Positions 2,531 to 60,137 of a stretch of DNA of 64,000 nt are shown one piece after another (the first letter of the stretch is position 1; each line of letters opens with the position of its first letter). Origin of the DNA: Pseudomonas phage vB_PaePAO1-KEN19; sequence record PP456878.1. One strand, written 5' to 3'. Below the pieces are notes generated by a model that was not told the DNA's origin, ran no database searches, and saw nothing but the letters and a program-made list of their open reading frames with translations. The translations under genes were made by a program, and so were the position numbers.

Positions 2531-3302
2531 CCTCGGTTTCCTTAATTGCTAATTTTACTAATACACTTACCCATGCGCCTTCATCGAGTAGCCAACCAGC
2601 TGCACCCGTGCCATGCTCGGCAAATCCAAGACTATCTAAATAATGTAGCATGAATGTAGTCGGACCAAATCCATATTTCTTATCACATTCATTACGTTTA
2701 GAAATATTCCACCCTTGGCGATATATATCCAATACATCATCAATATACTGCAATTCTGCTTCTGGATGGCCACAACCACACAGGTTTAATAATTTGCGTG
2801 TAATGGTATTGCATGTATCACTATATTCTTTTTCATTATAATCAATGAAAGTGCCTTCCCGTTTGAATAGTTGCTTATCAGATGTTAAATCATTAAAATG
2901 ACCAGGATAATCTTGAGATGGAAGTGCACCTAGTGCCATTAGTATAATAACACGCGGATCTTTACGCTCAACTGATTCAATGAGTACTTTAAAGTTGAGT
3001 TCTCGTTGTACCACATTGTTATCAATGTTGATATTATTCAGAAGAATGTCCATAGCTTCTTGACCATGCCAACTACGGAGGTTAGGTTGATTATTAGTAT
3101 AACCAGTGATGGTCAATTGGTTAGCTGTGTTTGATTTACCAACAGTAACATGTAAGTAATAAGGGCATTGTTCTAATTTATCAGCAATACCAGTTGAAGA
3201 TTTGTTACCCTCAAGTAATCCAACATCGCCATGACCGATATACAAACAGATACCTTCTGTAGAAGGTTGAGTAGTATAGTTAAAGTTCAAGGATTTAAAC
3301 AT
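2511..3302 (-). CDS. hypothetical protein (263 aa)
   Basis: ORF track; contains IGHGDVG and CGCGHPE motifs of unclear meaning. Confidence 0.5.
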   Translation of the reverse strand: MFKSLNFNYTTQPSTEGICLYIGHGDVGLLEGNKSSTGIADKLEQCPYYLHVTVGKSNTANQLTITGYTNNQPNLRSWHGQEAMDILLNNINIDNNVVQRELNFKVLIESVERKDPRVIILMALGALPSQDYPGHFNDLTSDKQLFKREGTFIDYNEKEYSDTCNTITRKLLNLCGCGHPEAELQYIDDVLDIYRQGWNISKRNECDKKYGFGPTTFMLHYLDSLGFAEHGTGAAGWLLDEGAWVSVLVKLAIKETEGGCTDV

Positions 3303-3329
3303 ACTCTTTCCTCTATTATAAATGATTAG

Positions 3330-3770
3330 TTATTTACCGTTTATATAAAGATTAAATGGACATTGACACATGAATTCCGCATTTAGAATACTTTCAATAT
3401 TGTAACTAATTGATTTATCAGTGATGATGTTGATATCTAAATACCACGTTTTAGTATTTTGAGTAACTAGTCTGTATTCAATGTCAATACTAAAGCCAGG
3501 TGCATCGACTGGGTCATTATCACCTTCATGCTGATAAATAAAGTGTGAAGATAATGTATATCTGGCTTTAATATATTCATCTGGTTTTATAACTTTTAAA
3601 GGGGCACTAATATGTGAAATAAAACCATGATAATTAAATTCTTTATCCCTAATGTCGATAACTTTAGGAGTAACCGATATATAGGCTGGCCATTGTGGTA
3701 AATCTAGTTCACCATGTTTAGATTGGTCTTTATCAACAATATGGAAAGCTCTAACAATCCTATTAAACAT
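3330..3770 (-). CDS. hypothetical protein (146 aa)
   Basis: ORF track. Confidence 0.5.
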   Translation of the reverse strand: MFNRIVRAFHIVDKDQSKHGELDLPQWPAYISVTPKVIDIRDKEFNYHGFISHISAPLKVIKPDEYIKARYTLSSHFIYQHEGDNDPVDAPGFSIDIEYRLVTQNTKTWYLDINIITDKSISYNIESILNAEFMCQCPFNLYINGK

Positions 3771-3804
3771 TTGATATACCTTTTAACAAAAAAATTATAA
3801 AGAA

Positions 3805-3825
3805 GAGTCCCCATAATGGGGACTC
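3805..3825 (-). terminator. intrinsic terminator hairpin GAGTCCCCAT-AA-TGGGGACTC followed by a U-tract on the minus strand
   Basis: On the minus strand the stem is followed by TTCTTTATAATTTTTTTG, immediately 3' of gene 3840-4091. Confidence 0.6.
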
Positions 3826-3839
3826 TATTATATCGTGCT

Positions 3840-4091
3840 TTATTTTTTATCGCGACTAGATGGAGCTAGCTTATAGAACTTCCGGAACTTATTAATAGAC
3901 AATGTAAATGAATCTTCCCTACCATCTGGATAACCGAGATAAACATCACGTCGAGATAGTTTAATTAGCTTATGTGCAGTTGATACACCATTGCGCTCAA
4001 CTAGAAAAGTTCGACCAATATAAGCTTCTAGATTATCAAGCTCAGTTGCAGGAATATATTTAGATTCTTTCAGAGTCAGGGTAGTGCTCAT
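3840..4091 (-). CDS. hypothetical protein (83 aa)
   Basis: ORF track; followed by a terminator. Confidence 0.45.
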   Translation of the reverse strand: MSTTLTLKESKYIPATELDNLEAYIGRTFLVERNGVSTAHKLIKLSRRDVYLGYPDGREDSFTLSINKFRKFYKLAPSSRDKK

Positions 4092-4127
4092 TTAATTTCG
4101 TCACCAGTTACGAAGTAATAAATTGAT

Positions 4128-5189
4128 TTATTTCCAGAGTGTTTTACCAATTAGATCATTTTCTGTGATGAAACTATCTAATTGATGTCCATAGTAAAGT
4201 AGACTATGAATTTGTTGATTTAGACGTTCTTTATTTGACCCTAGGAACATCTTATGCTTTTCTTCATCCGGTAATTTATCATAGACAAGTTGGCAATACT
4301 TTTTAGCTACTACCTTACCTGATGCAAGAAAACGTTCATCCCCTGTAAATAGTTGAGGAACGATATTTTCATCTAGATATTTATTAATCTCAGCATCCAG
4401 ATCAAAATGTAAATCGCTGTCAGATACTTCTACAGGATTTTCCTGCTGCGTATCATTCCATGGAATGTCCGAACTTTCACTTTCACTATCAAATTCGCTA
4501 TTACTTGAGGATGTGTTAGATAGCTGCTCATCAAAAGATGACTGTTTATTCTTTTGTTTTTCACGCAAGAAGATAATCGATTCAACAATTTCATTAACAA
4601 TGACATCTAGACCACGATTAGCATCGACCGTAATAGAACTAGGTTGATTGATAAGTCGTTCAAAACCTTTATCAACCTTATCGAAGTAATCGGATCCTTT
4701 AGATTCATAATAATCAAGGCGCCTATTACTTTTCTTAATTCGTTCTTCACGTACTTCTTTAGGTGCAGTCAGGAAGAAGGTAGCTGGCTCTGGGATAGAG
4801 TGTAAGGTTCCTTGAAGGATATCCATAAACAATTTTGATAGATATGGATTAGTTTCTTCGAAAGGATACACATTTAGAGCATATGTCGATGCAATGAATC
4901 GCTCGGTAATAACAATCTTATCTTCTTTAAGAGCAGGTAAGATGATATTCTCTACATTCATCACTCTATATGCACTATGCATCAGTACATCAAATTCCGG
5001 TGGTCGAACATCATTGTGTTTAGGCCAAATCAGCATTTGTCGGATTTCTTCTGATGTATTTGTACCGCCAGGTTCACGTAGTGTTACGACATCATATCCA
5101 CGTTTAAGAAGCTCCGCAACAACCATTTTTGTAACGGTCGTTTTACCGACACCTTCATTCCCTTCAATACTTACAAATAAACCATTCAT
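4128..5189 (-). CDS. tmk: thymidylate (dTMP) kinase with about 150-aa acidic/Ser-rich C-terminal extension
   Basis: N-terminus MNGLFVSIEGNEGVGKTT is the classic Tmk P-loop (known family); LID-like basic region around ERIKKSNRRLD; C-terminal SSSNSEFDSESESSD... is low complexity. Confidence 0.75.
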   Translation of the reverse strand: MNGLFVSIEGNEGVGKTTVTKMVVAELLKRGYDVVTLREPGGTNTSEEIRQMLIWPKHNDVRPPEFDVLMHSAYRVMNVENIILPALKEDKIVITERFIASTYALNVYPFEETNPYLSKLFMDILQGTLHSIPEPATFFLTAPKEVREERIKKSNRRLDYYESKGSDYFDKVDKGFERLINQPSSITVDANRGLDVIVNEIVESIIFLREKQKNKQSSFDEQLSNTSSSNSEFDSESESSDIPWNDTQQENPVEVSDSDLHFDLDAEINKYLDENIVPQLFTGDERFLASGKVVAKKYCQLVYDKLPDEEKHKMFLGSNKERLNQQIHSLLYYGHQLDSFITENDLIGKTLWK

Positions 5190-57450: not shown

Positions 57451-57470
57451 GAGAGTCCCGAAGGACTCTC
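57451..57470 (-). terminator. hairpin GAGAGTCC-CGAA-GGACTCTC (UUCG loop on the minus strand) 3' of the endolysin gene
   Basis: Read directly. Confidence 0.5.
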
Positions 57471-57553: not shown

Positions 57554-58377
<824 letters not shown>

Positions 58378-58397
58378 AGGTTCATTGAGGGTATTAC

Positions 58398-58931
58398 TTA
58401 ACTTTCTAGATAACGGATTTGACCATTTTCTAGATAACGTGCTGCACCATTCTCTAATAGTCGGATAGTATCTGACGTATCATCAATACGTTGAATTAGT
58501 ATATTACATTCACCATAGTAAGCATAACTACTCGACATAGCTACTATCGTGTATGGAACAATATCCGTAGTTGCATTGATTGGTGTTGTATCGAATGAAA
58601 TATCATCTGGTCCAAGCTTCCAACCTCGTGAACGGTTAATTTCTTCAGCAATCGCTTTAGGTGTTAAAGTACCAACTATCTTAAGGATAGATCCTTCACC
58701 AATAGCTCGTGGATCAGCAAAATCTAACCGACGGTAAGTTAACATGTACTTAATGTCAGTAGTAATGTCGATCATTTCAATAAATGTACGTCCAGGCTCA
58801 ACCGTGGTTGGACTAAAAAACATATCTTCAAATGTAACTGTTTCTGGTTTGAAGTTTATTTTTAAATCATCCCGCGCAAGTTTTACTAGCGCATTCCTCG
58901 ATGCCATGTCATACGGAAAGATATCCTGCAT
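58398..58931 (-). CDS. hypothetical protein (177 aa) inside the lysis cassette
   Basis: ORF track; no TM segment. Confidence 0.5.
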   Translation of the reverse strand: MQDIFPYDMASRNALVKLARDDLKINFKPETVTFEDMFFSPTTVEPGRTFIEMIDITTDIKYMLTYRRLDFADPRAIGEGSILKIVGTLTPKAIAEEINRSRGWKLGPDDISFDTTPINATTDIVPYTIVAMSSSYAYYGECNILIQRIDDTSDTIRLLENGAARYLENGQIRYLES

Positions 58932-59013
58932 GTCAAACCTCTATAGTGGTAAAATGTTTAATCCACATAGCATTATAAAGCCTTCCTCTTGAAGAGGAAG
59001 GCTATTATAGTTT

Positions 59014-59448
59014 TTATTGCATAAGCATCTTTATTAATTCAAAGGTACCTTGCACAATAGTCTTTAACACATTGGCACTTTCTTCTGACATAGGTGCACC
59101 AGATAAAACTACCATAGTAGATACTGATGCCCCAATAAGAGTAACGCCACCAGCTAATACCAATACCGCATTACGGTAAGAATCTTTAGCCTTCACTTCA
59201 GCAATTTCCCGGCTGAGAATTTTATATTGAAGATCTGAATCGGTAATAGCATAAATTAGACTAAGTACTTCCTCACCAGTTATACTTAGATTTATACGTT
59301 GTTCCTTTTCCAATACACTATTCAAATAGGTACGTATCTTCTTTCCATAGTCTTTAGAAGAAGATAAAGGATTACCATCGATCTCAATCAGAACGTCCTC
59401 TAGGGTCATGACTATTCTCCAAATTACGTTGACGTTCGTTCCATTCAC
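59014..59448 (-). CDS. membrane protein (144 aa), holin candidate
   Basis: One TM segment near the C-terminus (VLVLAGGVTLIGASVSTMVVLSGAP); lies between the spanins and the endolysin. Confidence 0.35.
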   Translation of the reverse strand: MNGTNVNVIWRIVMTLEDVLIEIDGNPLSSSKDYGKKIRTYLNSVLEKEQRINLSITGEEVLSLIYAITDSDLQYKILSREIAEVKAKDSYRNAVLVLAGGVTLIGASVSTMVVLSGAPMSEESANVLKTIVQGTFELIKMLMQ

Positions 59449-59746
59449 GCAATTTGTCTACTTGGATATTACATAGTCCAAGTGCATCAGTTTGTAAAAG
59501 CCAATGTTCGGTCATAAGTAAGAAACGTGCTTCATTCTCATCAGTAACCCCAACAGCTTTATATCTATCTAATGCATTGATGATCTCATTAGCTGTAGGT
59601 GGGGCTTCCACATCGCAAGGGAGAAGTAAACTACTTGGGATTGCAACTGGTATTTTCACGGGAGGCGGCACAGTAGTGCTCGTACATCCGTTTAGCAATA
59701 GCATTAATAGACTTATTAATGTTATCTTTTTTTGTGTCAGTTTCAT
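59384..59746 (-). CDS. o-spanin-like outer-membrane lipoprotein (about 120 aa), overlapping the i-spanin gene out of frame
   Basis: Start chosen at MKLTQKKITLISLLMLLLNGC (signal plus lipobox LLNGC); mature part Pro-rich (TVPPPVKIPVAIPSS); 116-nt overlap with the i-spanin 3' end. Confidence 0.55.
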   Translation of the reverse strand: MKLTQKKITLISLLMLLLNGCTSTTVPPPVKIPVAIPSSLLLPCDVEAPPTANEIINALDRYKAVGVTDENEARFLLMTEHWLLQTDALGLCNIQVDKLREWNERQRNLENSHDPRGRSD

Positions 59747-60137
59747 GTTTAATCTCAGTAGTGGTGCTTTCCCCATTAGTTGTTTTAGCTTTAACCTCAG
59801 GCCATACAGGTGGAGTATATCCACGACCTGATAAACTAATGTACTCATCAATCACCTCAGTGCGTGATTGCGCCTGCTCTTTTTGTATCTCTTTCTTTTT
59901 AGTAATTAGTTCAGCTTGAATTTTATCGGAGATACGATCTGATTCAATCCTAACCTTTTCTGCCGCTTCATAAGATTTAATTTTTCCAATTAAATCTGTA
60001 GAGCGAACAAGTTCCGTCTCATAACTATTTTTGTAATATATGATACCAATTAAGGCACCTATCAGAATAACTAATAGTAACCATATATGCAATGGCACGC
60101 TACCAATTATTTTTCGTATACCTGCTAATAGGAACAT
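59631..60137 (-). CDS. i-spanin-like inner-membrane protein (168 aa)
   Basis: N-terminal TM segment HIWLLLVILIGALIGIIYY, then charged coiled-coil KIKSYEAAEKVRIESDRISDKIQAELITKKKEIQKEQAQ. Confidence 0.55.
   Translation of the reverse strand: MFLLAGIRKIIGSVPLHIWLLLVILIGALIGIIYYKNSYETELVRSTDLIGKIKSYEAAEKVRIESDRISDKIQAELITKKKEIQKEQAQSRTEVIDEYISLSGRGYTPPVWPEVKAKTTNGESTTTEIKHETDTKKDNINKSINAIAKRMYEHYCAASRENTSCNPK

Follow-up and report, generated by a model that had tools for sequence, protein, structure and literature searches.

The closest described relative of the locus analyzed here is the lysis cassette of Pseudomonas phage phiKZ. Kongari 2018 (PMC6139136) listed phiKZ, as well as 201phi2-1, EL and OBP, among phages with overlapped two-component spanins; in supplementary file 5 of that paper the phiKZ pair is marked 'ovl', with the i-spanin at 144486-144993, the o-spanin at 144877-145240 and an overlap of 116, and the phiKZ i-spanin was a singleton. 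The phiKZ genes were later characterized by Manohar, Wan, Ganser, Sharp & Young (preprint of November 2025, PMC12642527; Sci Rep, January 2026, PMC12894885; Manohar 2026 below). Spanin complementation, holin function, triggering by dinitrophenol (DNP), lysis by the cassette and an effect of gp143 on timing have thus been demonstrated in the literature on phiKZ proteins. Here we consider the corresponding genes in a 64-kb window (the whole stretch of DNA analyzed) from Pseudomonas phage vB_PaePAO1-KEN19 (PP456878.1): a spanin pair (gp141 and gp141.1), a holin (gp142), a lysis regulator (gp143) and an endolysin (gp144), named after their phiKZ counterparts. The whole cassette is on the minus strand, and coordinates are those of the window unless another record is named.

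The 3.3-kb stretch carrying the cassette matched the DNA of Pseudomonas phage vB_PA32_GUMS at 100% identity and that of phiKZ at 99.1%. There were no nucleotide differences from phiKZ in gp140-gp142; gp143 differed by three amino acids and gp144 by two. Judged by its sequence, the window is that of a phiKZ-type Pseudomonas jumbo phage and the region is a five-gene lysis cassette. A multigene cassette working on the canonical holin-endolysin-spanin pathway is the explanation we favor, and we regard it as close to certain. All open reading frames (ORFs) of an initial annotation of the window, which had proposed a spanin pair, a holin candidate and an endolysin, were found at their coordinates on the minus strand. 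The proposed spanin pair matches both Kongari 2018 and Manohar 2026; the accompanying remark that spanins and a holin are not well defined for the phiKZ group is out of date in view of the same two papers. The cassette is already known: the pair was predicted in 2018, and the whole cassette was characterized experimentally in 2025-2026 on identical sequences.

Relative to gp141, the gp141.1 gene lies in the +1 frame. The two genes overlap by exactly 116 nt of the 363 nt of gp141.1, which extends 247 nt past the gp141 stop codon and overlaps the holin gene gp142 by 26 nt. Since gp141.1 runs this far beyond the end of the i-spanin gene, the architecture is overlapped, of the P2 LysB/LysC type, and not the embedded Rz/Rz1 architecture described at first. 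The 116-nt overlap and the LNGC lipobox given in that description are exact in the sequence. Its choice of the o-spanin start, ATG 59746, which differed from that of the ORF track, is the call made in Kongari 2018 (overlap 116) and agrees with the gp141.1 gene of Manohar 2026, with 120 codons and the lipobox LNGCT (PMC12894885).

The N-terminus of gp141.1, MKLTQKKITLISLLMLLLNG followed immediately by CTSTT, combines a basic n-region with a hydrophobic core free of charges and the lipobox L-N-G-C. All start/ORF combinations encoding 60 aa or more in the six frames of the window were passed through a simple lipoprotein-signal filter (basic n-region, uncharged hydrophobic core, lipobox and Cys at position 15-30). 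One of 758 combinations passed, namely gp141.1 from ATG 59746, and as the only match the ORF is beyond chance expectation. Retention in the inner membrane is signaled by Asp at +2 in E. coli and by Lys-Ser at +3/+4 in P. aeruginosa. The residues at +2/+3/+4 after the Cys of gp141.1 are T-S-T; this sequence-based test found no inner-membrane retention signal. C21 is, by prediction, the lipidated N-terminus of mature gp141.1, and the protein would be sorted to the outer membrane. A LipoP prediction for gp141.1 is given in Manohar 2026 (PMC12894885). The protein also matched Pfam PF23793 'Rz1-like lysis system protein LysC' (40.1 bits, cutoff 27) and PHROG 456 'Rz-like spanin' (E 1.6e-11).

One could still suppose that the lipobox ORF is an open frame arisen by chance and left unexpressed, with gp141 acting alone or not being a spanin. 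The public records would agree with this. RefSeq has, for phiKZ gp141.1, only a 95-aa version with a GTG start, without signal peptide and lipobox (locus record 3630-3917), and the o-spanin is unannotated in the records of PhiPA3, PS119XW, 201phi2-1 and RVTF4, while the KEN51 record starts at MLLLNGC. Moreover, ATG 59746 is preceded by a weak Shine-Dalgarno sequence, only GAG. Comparison with relatives, however, argues against a chance frame. By tblastn, diverged homologs were found in Pseudomonas jumbo phages only, and nine genera were compared (phiKZ and PhiPA3, PS119XW, Psa21, Phabio, 201phi2-1, Noxifer, Viktualia, RVTF4). The gene order RuvC-like resolvase, i-spanin, lipobox ORF, protein with one transmembrane domain (TMD), gp143 homolog, endolysin was the same in 9/9 genera. 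In all eight genera other than phiKZ an ORF in another frame, encoding a hydrophobic leader and the lipobox L-x-[GA]-C, lies between, or overlaps, the i-spanin and holin genes, and the i-spanin/o-spanin overlap is kept in each of the nine. A pattern scan of IMG/VR gave 16 loci (∼10 new metagenomic contigs). In 16/16 the lipobox was present and the mature protein had exactly three cysteines; the lipobox Cys of these loci stands 52-97 nt ahead of the i-spanin stop.

Conservation of the overlapping frame in related phages had been suggested as a check on the pair: the frame is kept in 9/9 genera and 16/16 IMG/VR loci, with the pattern L-x-[GA]-C in all of these relatives, although identity of the i-spanins falls to 15-30%. 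The C-terminal part of gp141.1 outside the overlap (59384-59630) is 34-59% identical across genera, above the 28-36% of the i-spanin (both by tblastn). Adding the match to Pfam LysC over its cutoff, the single filter match in the window and the complementation of a lambda spanin defect by the pair and not by single genes (PMC12894885), we consider a chance frame effectively refuted, with a probability close to nil.

The nine-genus alignment of o-spanins has the invariant residues L18, C21, C44, E72, A73, Q85, T86, C92 and W102. In one of the metagenomic o-spanins (IMG/VR contig L025, 2288-2923) the WEARFLMM motif is preceded by an insertion of ∼30 aa, so that the mature protein has 127 aa. O-spanins are typically short and poorly conserved, and the conserved C-terminal domain of gp141.1 is therefore unusual. 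Its conservation, better than that of the i-spanin, suggests a structured interaction domain. The mature part had been called Pro-rich; this holds for mature residues ∼26-51, about its first third, to which the proline enrichment is confined, and fails for the remainder, which is predicted to be helical with low confidence.

In gp141 the strongest hydrophobic segment occupies residues 16-34, with a Kyte-Doolittle (KD) 19-residue mean of 2.61, the maximum of the protein. The protein matches PHROG 7584 'Rz-like spanin' with E 8.6e-70, and 'Rz-like spanin' is also the label of phiKZ gp141 in RefSeq. In a single-sequence AlphaFold2 (AF2) model (mean predicted local distance difference test score, pLDDT, 72) residues 16-103 form one continuous helix, 104-132 are disordered and 133-158 form another helix; the modeled layout of TMD, helix, linker and helix fits what is expected for an i-spanin. 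Thus, of the TMD and coiled coil initially assigned to this protein, the TMD stands (KD 2.61) and the helical character agrees with the AF2 model; the coiled coil is not securely established. Weak Pfam and NCBIfam matches of gp141 and gp142 (DUF6364, Endonuc_Holl, HetZ_rel_2, gde_arch) were far under the cutoffs and were discarded as noise.

An N-terminal hydrophobic segment was present in every i-spanin homolog for which the upstream ORF is available. The two cysteines of gp141 are C-terminal, C156 and C165, and both of them, along with Y155, are invariant in the nine-genus alignment. Among the 15 IMG/VR loci with an upstream overlapping ORF containing a TMD, the C-terminal C...C motif was seen in 14. 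An i-spanin C-terminus without the YC...C motif was found in contig L015 (2059-2592), which could reflect a frameshift or a real variant. Berry et al. reportedly found in 2013 that periplasmic cysteines link spanins into homodimers by intermolecular disulfides. Four invariant periplasmic cysteines are available for disulfides here, two in gp141 (C156, C165) and two in gp141.1 (C44, C92). Locations of these and the other features of the cassette are collected in the table.

Table. Features of the lysis cassette in the 64-kb window of vB_PaePAO1-KEN19 (aa, amino acids)
Feature	Coordinates	Strand	Description
i-spanin, phiKZ gp141	59631-60137	-	168 aa, ATG, GAGG Shine-Dalgarno; N-terminal TMD, helical periplasmic domain
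i-spanin TMD, residues 16-34, LHIWLLLVILIGALIGIIY	60036-60092	-	Kyte-Doolittle maximum; within AF2 helix 16-103
o-spanin, phiKZ gp141.1 with corrected start	59384-59746	-	120 aa, ATG preceded by GAG; mature protein 100 aa
lipobox L18-N19-G20-C21 of gp141.1	59684-59695	-	from sequence
holin, phiKZ gp142	59014-59409	-	131 aa, ATG preceded by GGAG; TMD ∼59101-59169
lysis regulator, phiKZ gp143	58398-58931	-	177 aa, soluble
endolysin, phiKZ gp144	57554-58336	-	260 aa, PG_binding_1 and SLT transglycosylase domains
hairpin (58974-59009) then motif TATAATGCTATGT (58965-58977)	58965-59009	-	between holin gene and gp143
terminator-like hairpin 3′ of endolysin gene	57451-57470	-	8-bp stem, T-rich tail
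inverted repeat ATGAACC...GGTTCAT then TAATATGTAG	58351-58390	-	5′ of endolysin start codon

Turning to the holin, we take ATG 59409 (131 aa) as the real start of gp142 because of the GGAG Shine-Dalgarno sequence, the agreement with RefSeq phiKZ gp142 and the shared N-terminus MTL(E/Q), which is present in 7/9 genera (phiKZ, PhiPA3, PS119XW, Phabio, 201phi2-1, Noxifer and Viktualia). The length of 144 aa reported earlier would follow from GTG 59448 of the ORF track and should be corrected. In Psa21 the holin homolog, gp196 (locus record 3627-3962), is annotated with 111 aa from MLIGYV, without a conserved N-terminal stretch of ∼20 aa; its start codon was probably called too far downstream. A single hydrophobic segment spans gp142 residues ∼81-103, where the KD profile peaks at 2.01 (residues 84-102). 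From the flanking K73, K75 and R80 and from the published work (PMC12894885) we infer an N-in/C-out topology with a large cytoplasmic N-terminal domain and a short periplasmic tail.

The suggestion that this one-TMD protein is the holin has been borne out by experiment: gp142 complements lambda Sam and is prematurely triggered by DNP (PMC12894885). It had no match to a Pfam or NCBIfam holin family; given its demonstrated function and the lack of a curated holin match, it acts as a holin and belongs to a new sequence family. The downstream gene was correctly described as an SLT endolysin, as gp144 matched PF01471 (PG_binding_1, 63.1 bits) and PF01464 (SLT, 24.7 bits), both over the Pfam cutoffs.

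Earlier speculation and in-vitro interactions of gp144 with membranes, both cited in Manohar 2026 (PMC12894885), would allow a different route, in which gp144 is exported without a holin by direct membrane interaction and gp142 is not the timer of lysis in real infection. The lack of similarity of gp142 to known holin families would be in line with this route, as would the origin of the holin tests, which came from plasmids and not from phage mutants. Nevertheless, gp142 releases the lambda R endolysin with DNP triggering, and the cloned five-gene cassette gives sharply timed lysis of both E. coli and P. aeruginosa (PMC12894885). In addition, a transposon sequencing (TnSeq) preprint reported no transposon insertions in orf142 or orf144 (PMC12676376), and in gp144 itself we found no signal or SAR-like (signal-anchor-release) hydrophobic segment, the KD maximum being 0.81. 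We therefore judge holin-free export of the endolysin to be highly improbable.

The 177-aa protein encoded between holin and endolysin, left as an unknown in the initial annotation, is gp143, published as a lysis regulator specific for the holin (PMC12894885). No hydrophobic segment was seen in its Kyte-Doolittle profile. According to Manohar 2026, gp143 modulates holin timing with a shift of ∼10-15 min and needs the holin's cytoplasmic N-terminal domain to do so; its presence brings triggering forward by ∼10 min, and the delta(2-60) holin is blocked by it (PMC12894885). The gene tolerates transposons, with five insertions in orf143 in the TnSeq data (PMC12676376). Proteins that bear the names gp141, gp142 or gp143 in PMC5694885 (SPN3US) and PMC5380687 (phi92) belong to other phages and are irrelevant to this locus.

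Several observations weigh against the region being a lysis cassette of the proposed kind. For the spanins, (i) gp141 had no match to a Pfam or NCBIfam family; (ii) its coiled-coil status is uncertain, as supplementary file 4 of Kongari 2018 counts 0 segments of coiled coil in the i-spanin of phiKZ (PMC6139136), Fig. 2 of Manohar 2026 draws a coiled coil in gp141 (PMC12894885) and a crude heptad scan of our own was uninformative; (iii) gp141.1 scored 15.1 bits against a cutoff of 27 with P2_Rz1, a narrow NCBIfam equivalog; (iv) for gp141.1, AF2 run on the single sequence places three helices after an unstructured stretch rich in proline, a model of low confidence (pLDDT 52) that was taken only as a hint of C-terminal helices. 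The published functional tests are mostly heterologous (E. coli, lambda), and no phiKZ knockouts were made. The remaining observations concern virions. The sole PHROG match of gp142, 14484, is labeled 'virion structural protein', and so are the two matches of gp143, PHROG 2935 and 1037; RefSeq uses the same label for both phiKZ proteins. The 201phi2-1 homologs of gp141, gp142 and gp143, namely gp226, gp227 and gp228 (locus-record positions 2568-3026, 3209-3622 and 3647-4267), carry the record note 'identified as virion protein by mass spectrometry'. Finally, a 2026 Goslar cryoEM preprint, using hidden Markov model (HMM) searches and AlphaFold predictions, places gp143 among the DUF7941 baseplate-filament proteins.

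Taken at face value, the virion labels, the mass-spectrometry note and the baseplate-filament list, joined by a sub-threshold match of gp143 to Pfam PF25613 (DUF7941; 18.8 bits versus a cutoff of 27, E 0.0013, residues 64-148), would make gp141, gp142 and gp143 primarily virion structural proteins, the lysis phenotypes obtained from plasmids being side effects of over-produced membrane-active proteins. The behavior of the genes does not suit such an origin. Complementation of lambda Rz/Rz1 requires both 141 and 141.1, which is a defining behavior of spanins and not general toxicity, and complementation of lambda S by gp142 shows saltatory kinetics and responds to DNP triggering (PMC12894885). 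A lipobox and an inner-membrane TMD would put the spanins in the host envelope, not in a capsid or tail. Late, abundant membrane proteins presumably often contaminate virion preparations, and membrane contamination is likely to be the simplest explanation for the detection of the gp141 and gp142 homologs in virions. As to gp143, BLASTP comparisons with phiKZ gp126 and gp127 were not significant (E 0.51 and 5.3). A primarily structural role for the three proteins appears very unlikely to us.

A lysis cassette could still include a protein with two roles. Head-to-tail assembly on the chimallivirus baseplate is reported for members of DUF7941, and one could speculate that gp143, perhaps with its neighbors, is a dual-role protein, distantly related to DUF7941, whose unassembled pool could couple the timing of lysis to tail/baseplate assembly; we see this as an unlikely variant. 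More speculatively, the i-spanin and holin homologs might be real virion cargo at entry, for example with a part in shaping the lipid vesicle into which the genome is injected.

On the canonical pathway, which we prefer, gp142 would accumulate in the inner membrane and permeabilize it at a programmed time, with gp143 binding to the cytoplasmic domain of the holin, possibly by direct gp142-gp143 contact, and shifting the moment of triggering. The soluble transglycosylase gp144 would then reach the periplasm and degrade the murein. Loss of murein would free periplasm-spanning complexes of gp141, anchored in the inner membrane, and gp141.1, an outer-membrane lipoprotein; in these complexes gp141 would contribute two helices in the periplasm with a flexible linker between them, and the invariant cysteines could hold disulfide-linked spanin dimers together. 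Finally, the outer membrane would be destroyed by these complexes, probably through fusion of the two membranes.

Signals of transcription were seen between the genes. Directly 3′ of the holin stop there is a hairpin with a minimum free energy (MFE) of -20.4 kcal/mol (z -5.2; none of 200 shuffled sequences folded as well). A hairpin, with a differing stem sequence, followed by the core ATGCTATGT is present in 6/9 genera (phiKZ, PhiPA3, PS119XW, Psa21, Phabio and RVTF4); in Noxifer the ATGCTATGT core is kept and the hairpin is less clear, while 201phi2-1 and Viktualia have only a spacer of 24-25 nt between the holin gene and gp143. A scan of the window for TATAATGCTATGT gave one exact copy, and matches with two mismatches occurred at chance level, so that no general promoter consensus was shown by it. 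The TnSeq preprint reports transcription start sites (TSSs) upstream of orf139, orf143 and orf144 (PMC12676376). The hairpin and motif between holin and gp143 probably are a terminator and a phage promoter that split the cassette into separate transcription units; as they are consistent with the published orf143 TSS, the cassette is probably not a single operon. Likewise, the inverted repeat with TAATATGTAG located 5′ of gp144 may correspond to the published orf144 TSS. The hairpin 3′ of the endolysin gene has five GC pairs in its stem and an MFE of -15.6 kcal/mol (z -4.1).

With the cassette itself described before, the locus is instructive in other respects. An unannotated overlapped lipoprotein gene and its correct start could be recovered from raw sequence alone. 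Public annotation of the region is poor: the o-spanin gene is missing or has a wrong start, and the holin and the regulator are labeled 'virion structural protein'. The published picture is also extended a little, as conservation of the overlap, of the lipobox and of four cysteines in the periplasm now reaches across at least nine Pseudomonas chimallivirus genera and ∼10 metagenomic jumbo-phage contigs.

The likeness to P2 LysB/LysC lies in the i-spanin, whose N-terminal TMD is joined to a helical domain in the periplasm, in the lipoprotein gene, which begins in another frame within the 3′-end of the i-spanin gene and extends past it, in the match of gp141.1 to the Pfam LysC family over its cutoff and in the periplasmic cysteines of both subunits. 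The pair differs from P2 in that mature gp141.1 is long (100 aa) and has a conserved, probably helical C-terminal domain (WEARFLLM...QT...C) after the Pro-rich segment, and in that it stays under the NCBIfam P2_Rz1 cutoff. Neither P2 LysB nor lambda Rz has detectable sequence similarity to gp141, which has a PHROG of its own. With lambda Rz/Rz1 the pair shares the two-protein logic and the function, since the phiKZ genes complement lambda RzamRz1am as a pair and neither gene does so alone (PMC12894885); however, lambda Rz1 lies entirely within Rz, whereas the phiKZ-type pair overlaps for 116/363 nt only, and mature Rz1 has ∼40 aa versus 100 aa.

For the holin the nearest parallel is T4 gpt, a class III holin with antiholins RI and RIII: both have a single N-in/C-out TMD and a separate soluble timing regulator, with a possible parallel to lysis inhibition (PMC12894885). 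They have no sequence similarity, and the large domain is periplasmic in gpt but cytoplasmic in gp142; for these reversed domain sizes the authors of Manohar 2026 named gp142 a class IIIb holin (PMC12894885). The phiKZ cassette of Manohar 2026 (PMC12894885) is the same locus and agrees with the one described here in the start of the o-spanin gene, its 120 codons and its LNGC lipobox; between that cassette and the window, whose strain is 99.1% identical, there is no difference of substance.

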